Notes: a model not told the origin generated them from the sequence alone. Shown: positions 16,191 to 63,054, numbered from the whole stretch's first letter. The stretch is 63,054 nucleotides of DNA, filler included, from Rozella allomycis CSF55 (GCA_000442015.1; 3 parts of 3 records of this genome joined end to end with filler, not necessarily neighbours in it), one strand, 5' to 3'. Translations and numbers: made by a program.

Positions 16191-17115
16191 ATGGACAATC
16201 TATTTGATTTAAGAGGAAAATATTGTCTCGTTACTGGAGGTGCTAGAGGGTAATTGCCATATTATTTAGGTAGAAAAGAATTGGTGCCATGATAACAGAA
16301 GGGTTATTGAATTACAACGCTGAAAAAGTCGTGGTAGCCAGTCGTGACGAGGCCGCACTGCAGAAATTTTCAATTGAAATGAATAATAGATGTAATTATT
16401 CAGAGTTATTTTATATAGTTGGTCAAAATAGATGCGAGTATTTTAAGTGTGATCTTTCAAAGGAATCAGAAATTGATGTATTAGTAGATCATATTACTAA
16501 GAAGTTCGGAGGTACTGAATTCTCAAAGCTGAAATAGTTATTCATGTGTTAATTAATAATTCTGGTATAAATTGGGCCGCGCCATTGGATACATATGATC
16601 AATTAGCATTTGAAAAGGTTTTGAATGTAAATGTGAAAAAAGTATTCTATCTTATACAAAAGTAAGTTTATGTAATATAGTAGAGTCAGATTGCTGCCAT
16701 CAATACGCAAAGGATCATCACAGAATGATCCGGGAAGAATAATTAATATTGGTTCCGTTGACGGTATAGTTAATTTTATTAGACTATAGGCATTCGCGTC
16801 CCTCTCTTTGAAACTTATGCTTACTCTGCGAGCAAAGCAGCACTTCATCAAATGACCAAAGTGTTGGCACATCATTTAGCTTCTAGCAACATTACAGTTA
16901 ATGCAATTGCACCAGGACCATTTGAGAGCAAAATGATGGCTGCAACTTTGAAGCGATACGAAAATGAGATTATCGATAGTGTGCCGCTGAAAAGGATCGG
17001 AAAGCCGGGAGACATTGCCGCTGCGTGTGTATATCTTTGTGGTTTAGGTGGCTCATACGTTACTGGTTCTATATTGCCTGTTGAAGGTGGTTTGCTAATC
17101 AAGGCAGTTCTATAA
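16191..17115 (+). CDS. Short-chain dehydrogenase/reductase, multi-exon
   Basis: LVTGGARGIG (spliced), LINNSG, IINIGS, YSASK (YxxxK), VNAIAPGPF. Confidence 0.9.
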
Positions 17116-29156: not shown

Positions 29157-32100
29157 TTACCAAGAGATGGAATTGAATCTATCTATACTTTTTGAAGCCA
29201 CTTGANACCAAGAGATGGAGTTGAATCTATCTATACTTTTTGAAGCCACTTGAACATCTTTAGCGACTCTTTTTCTCATGTAAAAGATTGGACAGTCGGA
29301 AGCAGAACATAAAACTTCTTGGTGTAGAGAACCTTGACATCTTTGACATTGAGTCCAAAGTCTAGCAAATTTGATTTCTAATTCGTTCAAGTTTAACAAA
29401 TGTTTGTTGTAAATTTCAGAAATATTTGCGATACAATTTTTGCATACGGGAACGTTTTCATTTTTTAATGGAGCTTTGCAGCCGAGACAAGTTTGTTTTT
29501 TGACTGTGAATTTGCTCATGATGCTGTTAGTTGAGGTAGCGACTTGAATGACTCTGGTGTGATCACCGGTTAAGAGTTCATTTGGGTTTTTCATTATGGG
29601 TTCAAATATGCGAAGAAGGGGTTTAGCTAGTTGATTGTTCAAGTAGTATTTGGTGTCTATTGGAAGATTGTGTTCTAGAACGTAGATTGGATCTTCTGAT
29701 TTTTCATAAGCAGCGGAACCTTTTGGAGATTGAATGATAACGTAAGCGACTCTGTCACCTAGATTGGGAGCAGAACCAGCATCTCTCTTTTTCATTCTTT
29801 CAGCTAATTCAGCATGGGCTTGTTTGTTTGCATAATCATCACCTTTATTTAAAGAGAGATTAGACAGATACCAGTTTTGCTGAGTGCTTTTGTGATGACT
29901 AGTTGGGAAAGATCAATTTTGTTTTGAAGTAAATCTGAAATAACTTGCTTTGCATAACTAATTAAAGAAGAATGATAGAAATCCTTACTTTTTAGCACCT
30001 TGAACGTTTCTATCAATGAGGATCATTCGTAGACAAGTATCAATAACAACTTGAACTAGTCTACAATTATCTCTTCTAACAGTTTCAATTCCTTTGGTGT
30101 CCATTTTGTCATACTTGTCAGGGTTTGTCCAATATAAACCAGCGTATCTCTTTTTGTTTATTAAAAGATAAGGAAAATAAACTTTTTCAAATTCTAATTT
30201 GATTGGATTGATGAAAGAAGAAGAAACAAATTTAGCAGCTTCATTTCCCAACTCCATTGCATCTTTTAGATTGTCAACACCAAACTTGACCATTACAGAA
30301 TCAGTGTCACCATAAATAACTTTGGCATTAAATTTATAACCATTTTGAATTGTGTATTTCTCTTCAACCAACAATTTAGTCTTTTCAATCATCATTCTAC
30401 CAAACGAAGTAACACTTTGTGATATTTGAATACATGGTAGTTTCCCAATAGTAGCACCAGTGAATCCATAAACAGAATTAGCACTAATTTTTAATGCTAA
30501 TTGTCTTCCATCTAGAACAGCTCTTTTAAATGGATCTTTTTCATTCTTTAAATCATTTTTAGCTCTTTTTCTAGCTGAAATCAATTCTTCTAAAATAATT
30601 GGCAATAACCCTTTTCTCTTTTTATTACTCAAAAATAAATCTATTCTCAAATTCTTTTATTAAAATACCTCCAGATGGAGTTCTAATGTAATCTTCATTA
30701 TTTAATTTATATTTTTCAATTGAATTTAAATTTAACAATGTTGAATAACAAAGATTGTGTGCCATCATTATAGATGGATAAAGTGATGCAAAATCTAACG
30801 TTGCAATTGGCAAATCATAATATCCCTTAATTGGCTCAATAACTGTTGCTCCTTCATACTGTTCTTCTGTCACTTCTACTCTCATTGCTGGTATTATCAA
30901 ATCATGTTCAGCTGCCTTTCTATACAACTGTGACACTACTTTGACTTGTTGTCCCCTAGACAATAAAAAGTTAAACGGAACCCCTTTTAATAGTGATTAT
31001 AAATAGTTACCTATTAAATATAGATTATAAATGGTTACCTATTTTAATAGTCACTACACTCATTACCTATTTATTTCCTTACTACATTCATTACCTGTTA
31101 CTCTCGCCATTTCTATGTAATTGATTAAAGACATTAATTTATCAATCAATCTTTGTGGCAAATACGCATCCTTTCATTTTCTCATTTAATTTTTACTTTT
31201 AAACAATAAACAGCCAATCTTCTTCTAGTCTCTTCATTTCCATTCTGCAAATCTGTAATAATTGAATGCTGAACATCCTCTTTCTGCTCTCCAAGAAAAT
31301 GAGCACAAACTGAATTCAACGTATAACTTCTCAATTTATAATCTCTTTGAATAACCTGAAGCATATCCATATGCAATCTCCCTTCCATGGTCAACGCTTT
31401 ACTCTCTCGCGTTCCATACGCTTTAGATGAAAACGTCGTATCCTTTGCTATCGTTTTACTCTCACTAATCCTCCCCAAATAATTAAACTTTTCCAACTTT
31501 AACGCCTTTGCTCTATCCAACAAATATGGCCAATCAAAATTGCTTATATTATATCCAACTATCACATCCGCATCGATCCTCACAAAAAACTCTTTCCACG
31601 CCATCAACAACTCTTCTTCAGTCTCAAAACTATACACATCAGACCCAACTATATGCGCACAACTCTTCAACGTAAACACATTCCTTATAAACGGCTGTCC
31701 TTGTCCATGCACTGTCACCATATTCGCTATCTGAATCACTGAATCTTCATTCGCATCTGGAAACACCCCCTTCCTCCCTGCACACTCTATATCAAACGAT
31801 AATATCCTCAACGGCGCCAACTTTTGCCACTCTCCTTCAGGCAAATGACTAGTCAAATCTTCATAATACACCTTTAACACCCAAATCAACTTCATTTACT
31901 TCAACTTCTAATTGACACGGCGTGTTTTTATTCTCAATCAAATTATATTTCCCCTTTTGCAATTCAATCCAACTCATCCCTCTAATCTCACAATCAATCA
32001 TAAACCTCATTATAAACCCCAAATTACTCTCAAACGTACTAAAACTCACATTCATAAACTTTCCAAACGACATCCCTCCCTCCAACACCCTCTTCGCTCC

Positions 32101-32656
32101 ATTCACATGCGTCGGCAAACTACACACAATCTTTATATACGGCGACTTTACATCCCCATGGTACCCATATATATTCTCCTTTTTCACAATCTCTGTCCAA
32201 ACTATACTGCCTACTCCAACCCTCTGCTCCAACGACACTTTAAAACTATCCAAATCATTCTCTGAAAACCCATTCGGCGCAGCAACATACAAGTATGGGA
32301 AAAATCCATGCACATGGCAAACTACACTATGCTCCTCACTAGTCACCCCATACAATCTCAACACCGGCGCACTAGTCAGCCCTTCGGCTCTGCTATTTCT
32401 TTGCTTTACAATATCATGCACACCACTCTTGTAATCATCAATCTCTATTTGCTGGAACACCAAATTCATCGTTGCACTGTCCCAGTCTGGAACCTTGGGC
32501 CGTTCCCATCTTTCATGCGCTGGCGTATCTTTTATAATTTCAGTCACTGCCTTTACCTTCAGGATTATACAGCCGCTCCAACTCTTTTTCAAAAGTTGAT
32601 TCACACACCTTTTTACGCGACGAAGCTGGCTCTTCTTCTAAAGAATGTTTTGTCAT
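29157..32656 (-). CDS. POL3: DNA polymerase delta catalytic subunit, multi-exon
   Basis: Exo[36 protein letters not shown], CysA CLGC..CKNC, CysB CQRC..C..DC. Confidence 0.97.
30984..31094 (-). other. POL3 intron composed of four abutting GT..AG mini-intron units (28+28+28+27 nt)
   Basis: Removal restores the conserved [17 protein letters not shown]; three internal TAG|GTAA junctions at 28-nt spacing. Confidence 0.85.
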
Positions 32657-32845: not shown

Positions 32846-35348
32846 ATGAAGAATCGTTCCTCTTTGAATCCGTATTCAAACAGAAACTCTCCAAAGTAAG
32901 TATATACAAACCATTTTATAGACGAATTCTACCATACCTTCCAGACCCACCATCTAGTAAGTGTATTTTATTGAAACTTTGCTTCAAACTCTTGTTTATA
33001 TAAATTCATTGAGAATATTAATCTAATCTCTAGGTGATACAGGTCATCCATACGTGCTTCGAGAGGCCAATACGCCTAGATCTCCCAAAAGCAGATTGAG
33101 AAACAATGACGAAAAGTCGCTGCGTAAATTTGCATTAACAAATTGCAATTTGAAAAACGAAAGAAAGATTGTGAAATTATCACCGTCGTCTCTGAAACAA
33201 GCTGATGAAAATAATTTGAATCATGCCATGACATCTCCAATAAGAAGAGTTTTATTTGACACGCCAAAGACACCGAAAACAAAGGACTTTTTCAGCAGTC
33301 CGCCGCCAGTCAATAGGAATTTATCAGATATATTTTTGGACGCTAGAAAAGAGGCAGATTTAATTTTTGGAGATTATATTCCGCATAGAGAGAATGAAGG
33401 AGATTTGTTTGAAAAATTTATGAGTTCTGATTTTCATGAACATCCGAGCACGCAAATGCAGCAGATTGGAAGTTGCGATCAGGTTGATAATATATTGTCT
33501 GATAAAGTTGATAATTTATTGTCTGATAAAGTTGATAATTTATTGTCTGATTTACTTTCTGATAATCAAACAGTGAGTGAATCATTACAGACGTCATTTC
33601 AGCCAGAGAATTATGTGCCAGATGATATTTTGCAAAACATTATTGATGCTGCTGTGAATGAGAAACCAACAGCAGTTCAGGAATTGAAGAGTTCATTGGC
33701 ACAAAAGCCAGTTGTTAATAATTACATGATTGATATTTCAACACTTTATGCTATATTGACTGGATTAAAGAACCATTCTACGTCATTTGAAGAGATACTG
33801 GGAAGCTTTGTGAGAAGTGGAATAAATTCTATTGATTTAAACCAGGTTCTTTTGATGCTTAGTAATTGTTCCAATGCCCCTGCACTTGACGTTCCAATTT
33901 ATGATCGTGAAATTCCACAGTTGGATTCTGATGGGGAAACAAAGTCATTATATTTGCAATTTTTAAAGAATTTAAACAAGGATGAATTTGGTATTAATGA
34001 AGAGTCTGATGGAGAATATGCAGACAAGGAAGATTTTGCCATTGAAGAGTTTAGAAATGATAATGCAGTTAAAGTTTCACGTAATTTAATTAAATTTGAA
34101 TAAATTTAGATCAAGAGTTTATTGATTTGATGACGGATCATATGGGACAAGTTGAAGAGCCAGTTGAAATGATACCGTCAGATAATAATTTTCCATTTAC
34201 GTTGGAACAATTGAAAACATTGAGAGAACAAATGCAACAATATTTTCAATTTCTTATTCAAGCATATACAATAGCTGGTTGTATGTCTGGAGGTGAAATA
34301 TTACAAGGGGTTGCATATCAATATTTAATAGAATTGGGTTATTATATAAGAAATTATATGATTGATCCATCAAAAACTATTGAATATGTAAATCCATTGG
34401 GAAAGAAAGAGCCAATTCCAGATCCACTTTCAACTTGTAAATTTCATTGGTTGAATGATCCGATTGAAATGGAATCTTTTTTTATAAAAAACAATTTATT
34501 AAAATCTTTTTGTTTTGTTGAAGGTTATGAATTTGTTAAAGAACTTCCAAGACCTCTTTCTGTACAAAAAACTATTGATGATTTTTCTACTTTGAATTCT
34601 CACATGGTTTGTAGTTTTAAACAAATTATGAATCCTTTGGATAATTCAGTTCCTGAAAGACTAGTCTTCCAATGGAGAAACACTGAAAACGCTAGAAGAA
34701 CTTTTGGTTCAAATCTTTGTCTTCCTGTTGAATTGGAAACTGTTTTAAATGTTTTTCAACCATTCTTTGATTCTTCTTTATACCCTGAATTCAAATTCGG
34801 TATCAATCTTAAATCTTTTTCATCTAGAAACTCCAAATGGAAGATCAATCTTTCTTCCAATTGAAGATGAATTATTGCTACGTGGTCTATCAAGGTTTGG
34901 TTCTTGCGCTGCTGCGATGGAACTCATTTGCAAATATTATCTCCCCCTAAAAACTCCAAAGCAAATTTCAAATCGCTACAAAAATGTCATTCAACGAAGA
35001 AATAGTCAAATGAAAGAAAAGTTTCGTCAAGAAGCCGCCAAAAAGAAAATATTCACGCCAATTACACCTTTAAAGATGCCAGAATTAACTTCTCCTAAAC
35101 CTACCCACAATAGATCAACTAGAGCTACATCCTCTTTTGTTTCAAACACTCCAAGTCAAAATAAAACAATCTTTAATGGAAAAGAAATAAAATGGACTAA
35201 AGAAGAAGATAGAGCTATTTTAAATCACATTCGAATTCATGGAACTTCTAGATTGGATTCTTTAAATATCCAAAAGTCAAACCCTCAAATCTTGGCTCGA
35301 TACGACAAACTAATGCAAATATTCAAATCTCAAAATCAATCACTTTAA
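32846..35348 (+). CDS. GON4L/YY1AP1-like protein with Myb/SANT-like domains, multi-exon
   Basis: EEFRNDNAVKVS, LREQMQQYFQFLIQ, FLPIEDELLLRG..KYYLPLKTPKQISNRYKN and C-terminal KWTKEEDRAIL..QILARYDKLMQIF parallel the GON4L motifs in the same order. Confidence 0.75.
33478..33563 (+). repeat. Coding 24-nt tandem repeat (DKVDNLLS x~3)
   Basis: GATAAAGTTGATAATTTATTGTCT repeated, seen directly. Confidence 0.8.
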
Positions 35349-52448: not shown

Positions 52449-53402
52449 ATGCTGAACACAAAAAGTGAATCCTTAGAAAATGGGCATGCAATAGACACAA
52501 ATGATTGTAATTCGAAGTGCGGAAAAAGCGCTTTTCGCTTCGATGGATTAAGTTGGCCAAGTAAAATACCATGGTGCACAATAAGCAGGCATTGGAACTG
52601 AAAAAAGGATTTCTGAGACAGAAGAAGAACGTGTCTCACGCATGAAAAGAATGCGTGAAGCTGTAACGACGCTATTGGAATGTATAGGCGAAGATCCCAA
52701 CAGAGATGGTTTGCAAGACACTCCTGAACGCTATGCTAAAGCATTGCTGTTTCTCACGAAAGGTTATGAAGAAAAGATGTCAGGTAAATATTCTAATATG
52801 TATCTCAAAAGGAAGATGTTTTGAATAACGCTATTTTTGAAGAAGACCATGATGAAATGGTGATTGTGAAAGATATAGATGTGTTTTCAATGTGTGAACA
52901 TCATTTAGTTCCATTTTACGGAAAGGTAATGCATCATGTGAATCATGAGTAATTAGGTATCCATTGGGTACATCCCCAACAAAGACGTCATTGGTTTATC
53001 AAAGCTGGCCAGAATATCTGAAATGTATTGTAGGCGATTACAAGTCCAAGANGGTTCCATTTTACGGGAAGGTAATGTATCCTGTGAATCATGAGTAATT
53101 AGGTATCCATTGGGTACATTCCCAACAAAGACGTTATTGGTTTATCGAAGCTGGCCAGAATATCTGAAATGTATTGTAGGCGATTACAAGTCCAAGAAAG
53201 ATTGACAAAGCAAATAGCAAAGGCGATCGACGAAATGTTAAAACCAAAAGGTGTCGCGGTAGTTATGGAGTGTTCTCATATGTGCATGGTGATGAGAGGC
53301 GTACAGAAGCCGGGCTCAAAGACAACTACATCATCAATGCTGGGATGTTTCAGATCTGATTCTAAAACCAGGGAAGAATTTTTATCATTAATTCAGAAAT
53401 AA
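52449..53402 (+). CDS. FOL2: GTP cyclohydrolase I, multi-exon, with an assembly duplication around N 53052
   Basis: [61 protein letters not shown]. Confidence 0.95.
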
Positions 53403-56590: not shown

Positions 56591-57561
56591 ATACTATTAG
56601 ACTCAAAAGTAAATATAGCAGCGATTAAAACGCAAAGAAAATAAAACAACATTTTATTATTTCAATTAAATTTATTTGTAAATAGACACAAATGNACAGT
56701 ATTCATTTGATGGAGGATCGTCTATTTCTGAATTATTTCATTGTTGGCAGTTTGATTATTTGGGTCCCGTTCCAGTTAGTAAGAATGGAAATCGTTATGT
56801 GTTGAGCTTTGTTGAGGTGTTGTCTGGATATCCTTTTGCAAAAGCTGTGAGTGATACAACAGCTACAACAGCTATAGATTGTTTGAAAGAATTGGTTGCA
56901 TTATTTGGAGTTCCTGGAAAAATTATTTCTGATTGTGATAAGGGATTTACTAGTACATATTTCAGAGAAACTTGTGGGAAAATGGGAATGTTTGTTGAAT
57001 TGATTCCGGCATATCAGCCAGAATGGGTAGGTTATGTGGAAGGTCGGAATAGAACTTGCCGTTACGGAATTACGAAGAGTGTAGCAAATGGAAACTTTGA
57101 TAGATGGGATGAGCATTAATTGAATATTTTACAGGGTTATCGCGCTAGACCGCATAGTAGAACAGGGAAGTCGCCTCACTATTTGTTTTTTGGAGTAGAA
57201 GCGAAATTGCCTATGATTAGTAAAGATGATGAGATACTTGAGGGAAATGAAGTGTTGAGAATTGCAGAAATTTAGAATATTAATGGAATAAGATTTAATT
57301 GTATCAGAGAATCGAAATCGTCCTCTATTGTACCTCAGTTTGAAGTTGGTTCGTTTGTTTTAGTATTAAATTCGAAGATAAGAAAAGGGAATATTTGGGA
57401 TACGAAGAAACCAAGATACGATGGACCATTTAGAGTATTGAAGAAATTAGAGAAGAATGTTTATTCGTTGTTAGATGAATTCGGGAAAGAAAGTGAATTT
57501 CATGTATCGAGATTGATGAAGTTCATTCCACGAAAGAGTGCTTTGTCCTTAGAGGAGATAG

Positions 57562-57717
57562 AGTTAGAGGGTTTAGAAGGTCATGGAAGCTTCAGTAGTC
57601 ATGGAAACCCTACCCTATATAAGANTATCTTTCTGTGTTTTTTAAAGAAATTGAAGATAAACCTCAGTTACCTTATTGTTTGGTTGCTATCATCTTACCT
57701 TTTGTCATATTATAACT
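57562..57717 (+). mobile_element. Putative LTR with AGTTA...TAACT termini (contains an N join, true length unknown)
   Basis: Preceded by purine tract AGAGGAGATAG (57551-57561), contains TATATAAG, and is followed directly by the PBS-like sequence and the gag ATG. Confidence 0.6.
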
Positions 57718-57736
57718 TTCGCGTTATCAGCACGAC
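57718..57736 (+). promoter_or_regulatory. Putative primer-binding site complementary to the tRNA-Ile(IAU) anticodon arm
   Basis: TTCGCGTTATCAGCACGAC is the reverse complement of GUCGUGCU-GAU-AACGCGAA, a typical eukaryotic tRNA-Ile anticodon stem-loop with I34 read as G. Confidence 0.6.
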
Positions 57737-60700
57737 ATAAGANGATAAGATGGAGAATACTGAGAATAATAAGAAGAAGACTATCATGAATGTGGCTGCT
57801 GGAAGCTTATTTGAAGGGTTGCCTCCGAGGTTTGTTGGCGACGGATCGGATATTGATTCAGTGGATTCATGGGTCAGTACGTTTAAGATGGTGATCAGGT
57901 TGAAGGGGATTGATGATGATACTGCTACTCAGTTGTTTGGATGTTGGCTGGTTGGGGAGGCTAAAGCATGGTATTTGAAGCGGTTAGACACAGAGGAGGC
58001 CAAGGCTTGGAAGTTGAACGATTGGTTGGAATGTTTGATTACTCGGTTTGCCATTGTGGATCGCAAGAGGCAGGAATCCTGGGAGGATTTGGTTGCCATG
58101 AAGGTTGATGCTTCGCGACCGTTAGANCTGGTAGGTTGGGAAGGCTAAAGCATGGTACCTTAAGCGATTGGAGACGGAGAAAGCCAAAAGGTGGAAGTTG
58201 AACGATTGGTTGGATTGTTTGATCACGAGGTTTGCTGTTGTCGATCGCAAGAGACAGGAGTCCTGGGAGGATTTGGTTGCCATGAAGGTTGATGCTTCGC
58301 GACCACTGGATCATATGAACAATNTTTGACTCTGATGTTGCTTGGGAATTGCTGAAGTCGACAGATTACGATAATGTGGATTGTATTACTTTGCAGAGAC
58401 GCGCTTTAGATTTGTACAGGTTGAGNGATGTTGCTTGGGCATTGCTGAAGTCGACAGATTACGATAAGGTGGATTGTATTACTTTGCAGAGACGCGCTTT
58501 AGATTTGTACAGGTTGAGACAGAAGAAGGAAGCTTTGGGTATTTCGTTGGGAGGAACGGGGCAGGTGGTAAGACCCCAAGAGTTGGGAACTTCGGGGCAA
58601 GTGGTAAGACCCCAGGAAGCTAGTCCTACAGATCCGGTGCTGTCAGCGAAGATTGAAGATCTTACGAAGCAGTTGAATGATTTGGCTCTCATTGTTACGA
58701 AACCCAAGGTACCGAAGGACATGTCGAAGATTACATGGTATAATTGTCAGGAAAAGGGACATACTGCTGTGAGGTGTCCACAAGGGAAGAAAGAGAAAGA
58801 CGCGCCAGGGAAGACACTTGATGCGATGCTGGCTGTGACTGAAGAGATCGATGTTGTGAACAGTGCTGCTAAGAGGATGCGCGTTTATGATTTGTTGGAT
58901 GCGTATCAGGAAGCACGTCCACCGCTCGTGAAGAGAGGATTGGTGACGCTGAAAAAAGGTCCGGAGAAGAGTCCGGAGAAGAGCGAGGAGAAGAGAGTTG
59001 AGACGAAGAAAGATAAGAAGGGTGGAAGAAAAAATGTTGTGAAGAATAAGCCAGTGAGTTTTGTAGTTGGGAAGATTTGCCACCAAGAGATTCCTTTGTT
59101 TCTTGATGTTGGAGCCACTTATAGCATTGTCAGTGAGAAACTGTTGAAGGCGTTAGGTGTTGGACTTACCANCGTTGATGATTTGTTGGATGCGTATCAG
59201 GAAGCACGTCCACCGCTTGTGAAGAGAGGATTGGTGACGCTGAAGAAGGGTCCTGAGAAGAGTCCTGAGAAGAGTGAGGAGAAGCGAGTTGAGAAGAAGA
59301 GAGATAAGAAGGGTGGAAGAAAAGTTGTTGTGAAGAAGGAGTTGACTGAGCGGTTATTGGATGCTACCGCACCATTGTCGCTTCGTGAGTTATTTCAGGT
59401 GAAACCAGCTGCGATCGATGATATGATCAAGACTTTGAGGGGTTTTAAGAGTAATATTGATCGGAAGAAGAATTCGATTTTATCCGGATTTCAAGAAGGG
59501 TCGATTAACGAGGGGAAGACCAAGCCAGTGAGTTTTGTAGTTGGGAAGATTTGCAACCAAGAGATTCCTTTGTTTCTTGATGTTGGGGCCACATGTAGTA
59601 TTGTCAGTGAGAAACTGTTGAAGGCGTTAGGTGTTGGGTTTACCAAGGAGAATGCTGGAGCCATTAGACCTGTTGACGGGCCACCAGTAGCTGTGTTGGG
59701 TACTGCGACGCTTTTGATTGCGTTCTATGACGATGTGGTGATTCCGGTGAAGTTCAATGTATTAGGAAGATGCACAGTCCCAATACTAATAGGCATCGAT
59801 GTTTGTCAAAGTTTGAAGAGTAAGATCGATTACAAGAAATAGACTTGGACTTTTATTTATGAAGATAAGAATGTGGCTTTGCAGCTCTATGCACGTGACG
59901 TTATGATTCCGGTGAATGAGGTTGTTGACGGGATCGGAGGCTGAAGACGAGGAAGAGAGCTTGGATCGAGATTCAGAANTACTTTTATTTATGAAGATAA
60001 GAATGTGGCTATGCAGCTCTATGCACGTGACGCGATGATTCCGGTCAATGAGGTTGTTGAGTCGGGATCGGAGGCTGAAGACGAGGAAGAGAGCTTGGAT
60101 CGAGATTCAGAAATTTCGGAAGACGATGATGCGAATTTGTGTTTATTTGTGAAGAAGTGTGAATTGACAGATACAGGGTTAATTGTGGAGACGATGGAGG
60201 ATAGTCCCGAGAAACCAGATAGATTTAGCGAGATTGTAGAGAAGATTGAAGGGTTGAATGAGGATCAGAAAAAAGAAGTTGAAAAGTTGTTGAGAGAATA
60301 TGAAGATTTATTTCCTACTAAGCATATAGAGATGCCGGGAATTAAGGGGAGTTTGTACCACCTGGAAGTTGATCCGAGTGCTAGACCCATTAGTTCGAGG
60401 CTTAGACGGTATTCCCAGAAGGAGAAAGAGGTTATTAAGGCGGAGATCTAGTCGATGTTGGAGAACGGAATAATTGCCCCAAGTGATTCTGAGTGGAATT
60501 TTCCGATTGTGTTGGTGCCAAAACCAGATGGATCTCTTAGATTTTGTGTGAATTTTAAATTGTTAAATGCGNGACTTTTATTTATGAAGATAAGAATGTG
60601 GCTTTACAGCTCTATGCACGTGATGCTATGATTCCGGTGAATGAGGTTGTTGAGTCGGGATCGGAGGCTGAAGACGAGGAAAAGAGCTTGGATCGAGATT

Positions 60701-63054
60701 CAGAAATTTCGGAAGACGACGATGCGAATTTGTGTTTATTTGTGAAGAAGTGTGAATTGACAGATGCAGGGTTGATCGGAAGTATAGAAGAAGAGTTGGA
60801 GACGATTGAGAATAGTCCCGAGAGACCAGATAGATTTAGCGAGATTGTAGAGAAGATTGAAGGGTTGAATGAGGATCAGAAGAGAGAAGTTGAAGATTTG
60901 TTGAGAGAATATGAAGATTTATTTCCTACTAAGCATATAGAGATGCCAGGAATTAAGGGGAGTTTGTACCACCTGGAAGTTGATCCGAGTGCTAGACCCA
61001 TTAGTTCGAGGCTTAGACGGTATTCCCAGAAGGAAAAAGAGGTTATTAAGACGGAGATCGAGTCGATGTTGGAAAACGGAATAATTGCCCCAAGTGATTC
61101 TGAGTTGAATTTCCCGATTGTTTTAGTGCCAAAACCAGATGGAACCAGATGGATCTCTTAGATTTTGTGTGAATTTTAAATTGTTGAATGCGATCACAAA
61201 GAAGGATAAATTTCCACTTCCGAGGATAGATGATTGTTTGGATTCTTTAGCGGGAAAATTATTTTATTCTGTATTGGATTGTTTTGCGGGATATTGGCAG
61301 ATGTTTCTAGATGAAGAGTCTCAAGAATATTGTTGTTTTATTTCACCGTTTGGAGTGTATAAATTCTTAAGGTTACCATTTGGTATTACGAATGCGCCAG
61401 CTCATTTTCAGAAGACATTAGAGAGAATTTTCGCTGATTTCTTGTATGATTTTCTGACATTGTATATTGATGATATTAATATCCATTCGAAGACATTTGA
61501 AGAGCATATGGAACATTTGAGGAAGTTTTTCCATCGTTGTAGAGAATTTGGTATTTCATTGAAACTATCTAAGTGTTCTTTCTTTGCTGAGAAATTTCGG
61601 TATTTGGGATTGTTAATTACTAAGGAGGGAATAAGACCAGATCCTAAGAAGGTTGATGTTTTAGTCAAGACACCAAGGCCGAGAAATGTTAAGGAATTGA
61701 GATCTTTTGTTTGTTTGGGTTCGTATTTCAGAAGATTTATTCCACATTTTACTGATGTTGTTGAGCCCTTACAATGTTTGTTAAAAGAGGGTACAGAATA
61801 TATTTGGAATATAGATTGNTTATCTAAATGTTCTTTCTTTGCTGAGAAATTTCGGTATTTGGGGTTGTTAATTACGAAGGATGTAATACGACCAGATCCT
61901 AAGAAGGTTGATGTTTTAGTCAAGACACCAAGGCCGAGAAATGTTAAGGAACTGCGATCTTTTGTTTGTTTGGGTTCGTATTTCAGAAGATTTATTCCAC
62001 ATTTTACTGATGTTGTTGAGCCCTTACAATGTTTGTTAAAAGAGGGTACAGAATATATTTGGAATATAGATTGTGAAAACGCTTTCGAAGAAATAAAGAA
62101 TTTATTGACGACTGCGCCGATTTTGAAACAACCGGATGATGTAGGATCTTTTGTGTTGTCGACTGATGCGTCTGGAGTTTCCCTGGGATCGGTTCTAGAG
62201 CAGATGGACCAAGAGGGAGTATTAAGACCAGTAGGATATTATTCGAGAAGGTTGACATCCGCGGAAAGGAATTATGCGAATTTCGAACGCGAAGGATTGG
62301 CTGTGATTGCTTCGATCAAACATTCAAACATTTTCGATGTTATTTGATTGGAAGACATTTTACTGTTTTTACTGATAATTCCGCGATATCGGCATTGTTT
62401 CGTATGAAGGATCCGAGTGGTAGAGTTATTAGATGGATTAATATGTTGTCGGAATTTGATTGCGAGATTAAGCACAGAGCCGGAAAATTGAATGTTGTTG
62501 CTGATTTCTTATCGCGCCCTACAAAGAACACGGAGTTAGAAGATGTTTTGGTAGGAGAAGAAATAAATGATGAATTTAGTGGGAAGAATTCGTTGGTTGC
62601 TTATAAGAAGTTTTTAGAGGGGGGAGAATGTAGCTCGATGTTGGTTTGTCGAGAAAATTTAGAAGGACTGTTAAGAGATTTGTTTTGATTAAAGGTTTAT
62701 TATATAGAAGATCGAAAGTCCCGTTGAGAGTATTGATGAGCAAAGAGGAATTAGAATCGTTGTTGAGGAGTTTACATGATAATCTGGGTCATTTCTCATT
62801 TCAGACTATTTGGAGTTGGATTAAAGTGAGATTTTGGCGTCCTCATTTATTTGCCGAGGTTAAGCATTTTGTATTTTCTTGTGTGCAATGTCAAAGATTT
62901 TTAATGGTGAAACCGCAGTATTCATTTGATGGAAGATCGTCTATTTCTGGATTATTTCATTGTTGGCAGTTAGATTATTTGGGTCCCTTTCCAGTTAGTG
63001 AAAATGGAAATCGGTATGTGTTGAGCTTTGTTGAGGTGTTGTCTGGATATCCTT

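Follow-up and report, generated by a model that had tools for sequence, protein, structure and literature searches.

The window analysed here is a stretch of 63,054 nt, filler included, of the genome of Rozella allomycis CSF55 (GCA_000442015.1). Its minus strand carries a gene that, on its domains and close orthologue match, is that of the catalytic subunit of DNA polymerase delta (Pol delta). The gene is interrupted by an intervening sequence of 111 nt (the array) that reads as four complete mini-introns joined end to end and is predicted to be removed in several splicing reactions. The locus is laid out as follows, the scores being those of an intron-internal position weight matrix (PWM).

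29208..32656, minus strand: gene for the DNA polymerase delta catalytic subunit (99% identity to a Rozella allomycis CSF55 protein over a 225-residue exon; Pfam domains)
30984..31094, minus strand: intervening sequence, 111 nt, array of four abutting mini-intron units (sequence, period of 28, gap in a homologue, contigs of DNA runs)
31067..31094, minus strand: unit 1, 28 nt, GTAATGAATGTAGTAAGGAAATAAATAG (score 7.1, above 8 of 54 real tiny introns)
31039..31066, minus strand: unit 2, 28 nt, GTAATGAGTGTAGTGACTATTAAAATAG (score 7.8, above 17 of 54)
31011..31038, minus strand: unit 3, 28 nt, GTAACCATTTATAATCTATATTTAATAG (score 10.2, above 52 of 54)
30984..31010, minus strand: unit 4, 27 nt, GTAACTATTTATAATCACTATTAAAAG (score 9.4, above 45 of 54)
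31095..31170, minus strand: upstream exon, 76 nt, 26 residues, ending in ...ACAG before the array (sequence, tblastn)
30669..30983, minus strand: downstream exon, 315 nt (PF00136 DNA_pol_B, residues 1-100 on profile 1-100, E 9.5e-34)
32529..32556, minus strand: ordinary 28-nt intron (intron scan, gene finder)
31872..31899, minus strand: ordinary 28-nt intron (intron scan, PWM gene finder, tblastn)
31171..31196, minus strand: ordinary 26-nt intron at the CLK/DAY site (intron scan, gene finder, relatives; here and below a slash marks a splice or unit boundary)
30641..30668, minus strand: ordinary 28-nt intron (intron scan, gene finder)

The array has the anatomy claimed by a sequence-only reading that preceded this analysis, namely units of 28/28/28/27 nt with GTAA...AG ends and three internal TAG/GTAA junctions. 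All four units start with GTAA and end with TAG or AAG, the junctions stand in 28-nt phase, and each of the four donors and four acceptors stands whole and uninterrupted in the genomic sequence. Tandem Repeats Finder calls a repeat of period 28 at 30985-31051 (score 92). In ungapped comparison 21 of 28 positions agree between units 1 and 2, 21 of 27 between units 3 and 4, and 10-13 in each of the remaining pairs; a gapped alignment shows ACTATTAAA to be common to the 3′ halves of units 2 and 4. An Rfam search of the window gave 0 matches. Folding revealed no hairpin that would shorten the 111 nt (minimum free energy −18.1 kcal/mol, z = +0.35, with 132 of 200 shuffled sequences folding as well).

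Identification of the host gene rests on the 225-residue exon at 31197-31871, which is 99% identical to the R. allomycis CSF55 Pol delta catalytic subunit (next best match, 74%), and on the family B domains PF03104 (exonuclease, E 3.3e-55) and PF00136 (polymerase, E 9.5e-34 and 2.7e-85). The 111 nt correspond to 37 codons, and reading them in frame encounters stops. Since tblastn with the 74%-identical Pol delta homologue shows the array as a stop-filled 37-codon gap and the downstream exon starts at PF00136 position 1, all 111 nt must be removed to restore the conserved RVTG/VPF, as had been proposed. A single unit kept in the mRNA would, as the sequence reads, cause a frameshift or an in-frame stop. 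The array is located exactly at DNA_pol_B profile position 1 (30670-30981, minus strand), the boundary of the exonuclease and polymerase domain models.

The array is real DNA and not an assembly artefact, because single contigs from the DNA runs of three studies span it without gaps. The surrounding 3.7 kb is present in nine DNA runs from six studies, and we compared three runs (X1, X2 and X6) from three studies. Their contigs cross the array with 0 gaps (X1, 29397-31439; X2, 30590-31855; X6, 29207-31239). No difference in the number of units was found among X1, X2 and X6. X1 and X6 differ in unit 4 at plus-strand positions 30986 (T>G) and 30988 (T>C), where the 3′ end TTAAAAG becomes TTGACAG with the AG retained. 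The X1 contig has 5 differences in total, two of them in unit 4; the X2 and X6 contigs have further differences beyond those listed, at unassigned positions. The window does hold many single-N joins beside near-duplicate sequence (e.g., at 29206 and 53052), as might be expected if the array were an assembly or haplotype artefact or the gene copy a dead pseudogene. However, the nearest N is >1.7 kb from the array, the other Pol delta exons are all intact, and no second Pol delta copy is seen, the one further database match being 74% identical. Together with the gap-free contigs, this makes an artefact or a dead copy scarcely credible.

The public protein model of this gene, P0001, treats the region differently.

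30881..31165, minus strand: 285-nt stretch taken as one intron by P0001 (P0001 mapping)

P0001 reads ...AVYCLKDA/VEVTEEQ...; it maps to 31197 plus 'DA' and resumes at 30879, dropping the array together with 58 conserved codons (YLPQRL...ARVTG and VPFNFLL...IIPAMR). If the model were right, the mature protein would be without the 58 residues around the array, and the deposited protein does read and map as such a 285-nt removal, of a stretch that is bounded by GT..AG and is a multiple of three. Yet an intron of this kind would delete the first ~34 positions of the DNA_pol_B domain and would be ~10 times the modal intron length. The stretch that P0001 skips is present and contiguous in 78 of 78 informative relatives, and the skipped codons are open, with the homologue aligning across them and the 37-codon array gap as its sole interruption. 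We consider the public model very improbable as a description of the gene; the 58 conserved residues are missing from it because the array is beyond what gene finders can deal with. No protein >83% identical in a large protein collection contains the downstream exon, and the array has evidently never been modelled correctly in deposited proteins. Our own PWM gene finder placed a shifted 111-nt intron at 31066..30956 (minus strand), with unit 1 as exon. This path is an in-frame GT..AG that takes out units 2-4 together with the 28 nt that open the next exon (these, too, end in TAG), so that NECSKEIN would stand in place of the conserved VPFNFLLS. On homology it is rejected as the main product, although it could be a cryptic isoform.

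The units are best judged against the introns of the window at large. In a simple scan, GTA..AG segments joining open frames peak at 26-29 nt. A length-unbiased dynamic-programming gene finder, the first run of which joined genes via false long introns, returned 55 introns of 26-31 nt (26 nt, 10; 27 nt, 13; 28 nt, 14; 29 nt, 12; 30 nt, 2; 31 nt, 4), 49 of them within the mode of 26-29 nt. Two ~30-nt introns are described for R. allomycis S23 (PMC6349667), and the lowest intron median among single-cell fungal genomes including R. allomycis is given as 29 bp, with the species of that value not named in the accessible part of the article (PMC8042348). The 54 tiny introns used for comparison begin with GTA, on which they were selected; 36 of them have A at +4, position −3 is T or A, and the interior is rich in A+T. 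These 54 show no enrichment of a branch motif (TRAY in 26 versus a shuffled mean of 24.9; CTRAY in 4 versus 3.9). The sequence-only reading had noted that the array, in contrast to two introns of ~72-76 nt, has no CTAAY near its 3′ end. The motif is indeed absent, but the contrast with longer introns is uninformative because the tiny introns here show no enriched branch motif either. The two introns themselves could not be located with confidence, the nearest candidate being a 71-nt GT..AG segment at 32963-33033 with CTAAT 11 nt from its end.

Gene finding with PWMs predicted 41 introns of 25-32 nt, 2 below that range and 22 above it. One of the longer predictions is the shifted array and 8 lie in an N-ridden retroelement, leaving 13. 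Two of these 13 are spurious on their face (one holds an N, the other has a 2-nt first exon). Four of the 13 could be tested against conserved proteins, and all four dissolved into introns of 22-31 nt.

Predicted 67-nt intron in ABCE1: becomes 31 nt (the 84 residues after the intron align end to end with RLI1 426-509)
Predicted 63-nt intron in ABCE1: becomes 28 nt (the reading frame that runs to the donor encodes the Fer4_RLI domain, E 1.4e-14)
Predicted 177-nt intron in GTP cyclohydrolase I: becomes 31 nt, with a duplicated stretch behind an N (on chain 1fb1_A one exon ends at residue 97 and the next starts at residue 98)
Predicted 141-nt intron in a short-chain dehydrogenase: becomes 22 nt, a 79-nt exon and 26 nt (adh_short profile 78-117, then from 141)

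Besides the array, no intron >32 nt was verified in the window. The 22-nt intron of the short-chain dehydrogenase (16662-16683, plus strand; 19 nt with an upstream TAG) falls below the 26-31-nt mode, and both acceptors keep the frame. The Ns at 29206, 53052 and 22 other positions or runs are unmerged contig joins beside near-duplicate sequence, and they mislead gene prediction into false long introns. Both sides of the N at 29206 carry the Pol delta C-terminus, while after the N at 53052 a slightly different copy of a GTP cyclohydrolase exon-intron junction is repeated. A retrotransposon-like region at ~56700-62350 (plus strand; G+C 0.39-0.45) has internal near-duplications and many single Ns; RVT_1 is above the Pfam cut-off there, with sub-threshold matches to an integrase core (rve) and an aspartyl protease.

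Judged by length, ends, A+T content and PWM score, each unit is a credible intron of the tiny Rozella class. Their scores lie within the range of the 54 real tiny introns (5.9-12.0, median 8.5), compared with a median of 5.2 for all 537 GTA..AG stretches of 26-31 nt in the window, and their A+T content is 0.71-0.82 versus a mean of 0.74 in tiny introns. A scan for chains of abutting mini-intron-like units (24-32 nt, score ≥6.5) found the array as the sole chain in the 63-kb window. Among 200 first-order Markov simulated windows, chains of two units arose at 0.185 per window and chains of at least three units at 0. The array is not explained by chance, because no simulated window gave a chain of three or four units.

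We recovered 80 metagenomic Pol delta loci at 52-71% identity, none closer, and the array site is contiguous (RVTG/VP or RVCG/VP) in 78 of them; the other 2 begin at a contig end. The array is lineage-specific, because all 78 informative relatives are intron-free at the site. The closest relative, a protein of 83% identity that is not among the 80 loci (P0121), reads through the array site without a break; it looks like an unspliced open frame, the ends of which diverge into non-homologous residues. On these comparisons the array is an intron gain in the Rozella lineage, in a CAG/G context and at a site that is intron-free in all else examined. At the neighbouring CLK/DAY site, the position of the 26-nt intron at 31171-31196, 17 of 39 informative metagenomic loci (L003-L038) have a reading-frame break between the same two codons. 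This suggests an old, widely shared intron position adjoining a young array.

The proposal that the array arose by tandem intron duplication holds in part. The likeness of unit 1 to unit 2 and of unit 3 to unit 4, together with the period of 28, points to a repeat origin. Four copies of one unit are not demonstrated, because the interiors of the two pairs (units 1 and 2 against units 3 and 4) are identical at 5-6 of 21 positions, versus an expected proportion of 0.34, which is at or below chance. All three AG/GTA junctions are intact despite this chance-level identity; either selection has preserved the junction signals or two types of intron unit went into the array. We also searched the rest of the 63-kb window for dispersed copies of the 16-nt 5′ halves of the units (≤3 mismatches), as introners might leave, and found no family-like match. 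For an intron made by tandem duplication of exon sequence (AGGT model), whose ends should look like the adjoining exons, the comparison gave weak, unscored resemblances: units 3 and 4 begin with GTAAC, much like the exon end GTAACAG, and TAG also closes the 28 nt of exon that lie 3′ of the array.

Recursive splicing at zero-length exons is established for the ratchet points of Drosophila, and the array shares its logic: each internal 3′ site abuts a 5′ site, and removal of an upstream unit would regenerate a donor, CAG/GTAATG in the case of unit 1. Two recursive-splicing introns, the first reported in a yeast, are described in S. pombe, including the 336-nt intron of SPNCRNA.445, and indicate that the principle operates in fungi with short introns (bioRxiv 10.1101/226894). 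In those accounts long introns, of kilobases in animals and of 336 nt in S. pombe, are divided at a single point or a small number of points, whereas the array is 111 nt in all, consists entirely of minimal-size introns and has three junctions in 28-nt phase. It is much longer than the modal 26-29 nt of this organism, yet tiny next to the recursive introns described. Stwintrons of filamentous fungi are likewise complex intervening sequences removed by consecutive standard splicing reactions, but there the donor, branch or acceptor of an external intron is split by an internal one, which imposes an obligatory nested order; the units of the array abut and leave each other's signals intact. With its four donors and four acceptors unbroken, the array does not fit the definition of a stwintron.

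Intron gain by repeat expansion is described for Cryptococcus CNN00420, with unequal crossing-over, conversion or slippage proposed as the means (PMC2395259). As in other models of tandem duplication, local duplication of DNA multiplies introns in that case. However, the repeat in such cases is an exon plus an intron, as in Cryptococcus (PMC2395259), or an AGGT exon segment turns into an intron, whereas the array repeats the intron alone with no exon between. Genomes with tiny introns such as those of Paramecium (~24-25 nt) resemble the window in their sharp length mode, weak signals and GT..AG ends; chains of tiny introns are absent from the descriptions found, as far as these extend. Introns of P. 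bursaria outside the modal 23-26 nt are spliced less well (PMC12862383), which speaks for an intron length optimum by analogy only. Literature searches on stacked, abutting or tandem spliceosomal introns and on stwintrons, which covered few subscription journals or supplements, returned no description of such an array. The array may be viewed as a variant that combines the logic of recursive splicing at zero-length exons with intron duplication.

We propose that the array is removed stepwise, in several mini-intron reactions, and assign this a probability of about 0.55. The array is built as a head-to-tail chain of four complete mini-introns of the form GTA(A)...WAG, A+T-rich and 27-28 nt long, present in the single Pol delta gene of R. 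allomycis or a near-identical strain and specific to that lineage; its growth may have come from intron-sized units that were duplicated locally or exchanged unequally. Beyond GTA, AG and a very narrow length of 26-31 nt, the splice signals of this genome hold little information. Because the signals are weak and length is the sharpest intron property, the spliceosome would most likely pair each 5′ site with the nearest 3′ site, ~28 nt away, as one would expect where splicing works by intron definition. Adjacent units would probably be removed in succession, in any order, because their spliceosome footprints overlap and they are too close for joint occupancy. Joining of the exon end ...ACAG to the GTAA of any later unit yields a new donor. 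Pairing of the 5′ site of any unit i with the 3′ site of any unit j (j ≥ i) would leave a chain of whole units, and because every pairing does so, all routes are expected to converge on the same mRNA, ...ACAG/GGGTT.... Even an out-of-phase choice of 29 nt within units 1-2 still leaves a 27-nt GTAA...TAG remainder. The architecture is, to judge from these pairings, fail-safe. Stepwise removal predicts partial junctions such as ...ACAG/GTAATGAG, ...ACAG/GTAACC and ...ATAG/GGGTT.

The alternative that competes most directly with stepwise removal is that the array is one ordinary 111-nt intron, with unit 1 supplying the 5′ site and unit 4 the branch and 3′ site for a single reaction, and with the internal junctions as unused leftovers of recent duplications. 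The intron-internal PWM gives this pairing 8.0, a value inside the span of real introns, and spliceosomes in general have no known upper limit of intron length. P. bursaria, with a median of 24 nt, has introns up to 100 nt (PMC12862383). Longer candidates also exist in the window, namely the 71-nt segment with CTAAT and 7 predicted introns of 47-190 nt. Such a pairing would nevertheless have to pass over three competent 5′ and three competent 3′ sites at the organism's preferred spacing, with no stabilising fold to bring the array ends together. The failure of every tested long prediction and the intact internal signals between interiors of chance-level identity likewise count against it. We regard a single 111-nt intron as possible but rather unlikely.

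Several further observations weigh against stepwise removal. Units 1 and 2 have 7 differences, 0 of which fall on the 7 signal positions, but the corresponding P = 0.098 is weak evidence for conserved signals, and the intact internal sites could simply reflect young copies. In X1, X2 and X6 the copy number does not vary, as it might in a repeat that is actively expanding. Our own predictions, which favoured GTA and W at −3, served to train the PWM. With no second chain, the window gives no sign of a general phenomenon. No RNA run was listed as containing the locus, and a metatranscriptome with the same species label (X11) gave 9 short, mismatched pieces and no joints. The narrow length distribution may reflect a deletion bias and not an upper limit of the machinery.

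A more far-reaching version of stepwise removal is that the Rozella spliceosome has an effective upper limit near ~32 nt and that the array is obligatorily removed by four serial reactions via zero-length exons. Whole-intron tandem duplication would then be near-neutral, because any copy number is spliced out cleanly, and the array would be an 'intron minisatellite'. We advance this version tentatively and hold it doubtful as it stands.

The chain-of-introns anatomy is solid, and the array is rare and lineage-specific. In practical terms, the public protein model of an essential gene is without 58 conserved residues, and some annotated long introns of this organism may be artefacts, as were all four of our own predictions that could be tested. 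If the units are removed singly, the array would offer a natural experiment in how length is gauged by a tiny-intron spliceosome. Stepwise removal would also make it the most compact known case of zero-length-exon splicing, and in an essential gene. Tandem duplication of whole introns would then be harmless to the mRNA, a gain of introns that requires neither exon sequence nor a mobile element. Should an upper length limit apply as well, the array would represent a hitherto undescribed route of intron multiplication in place.

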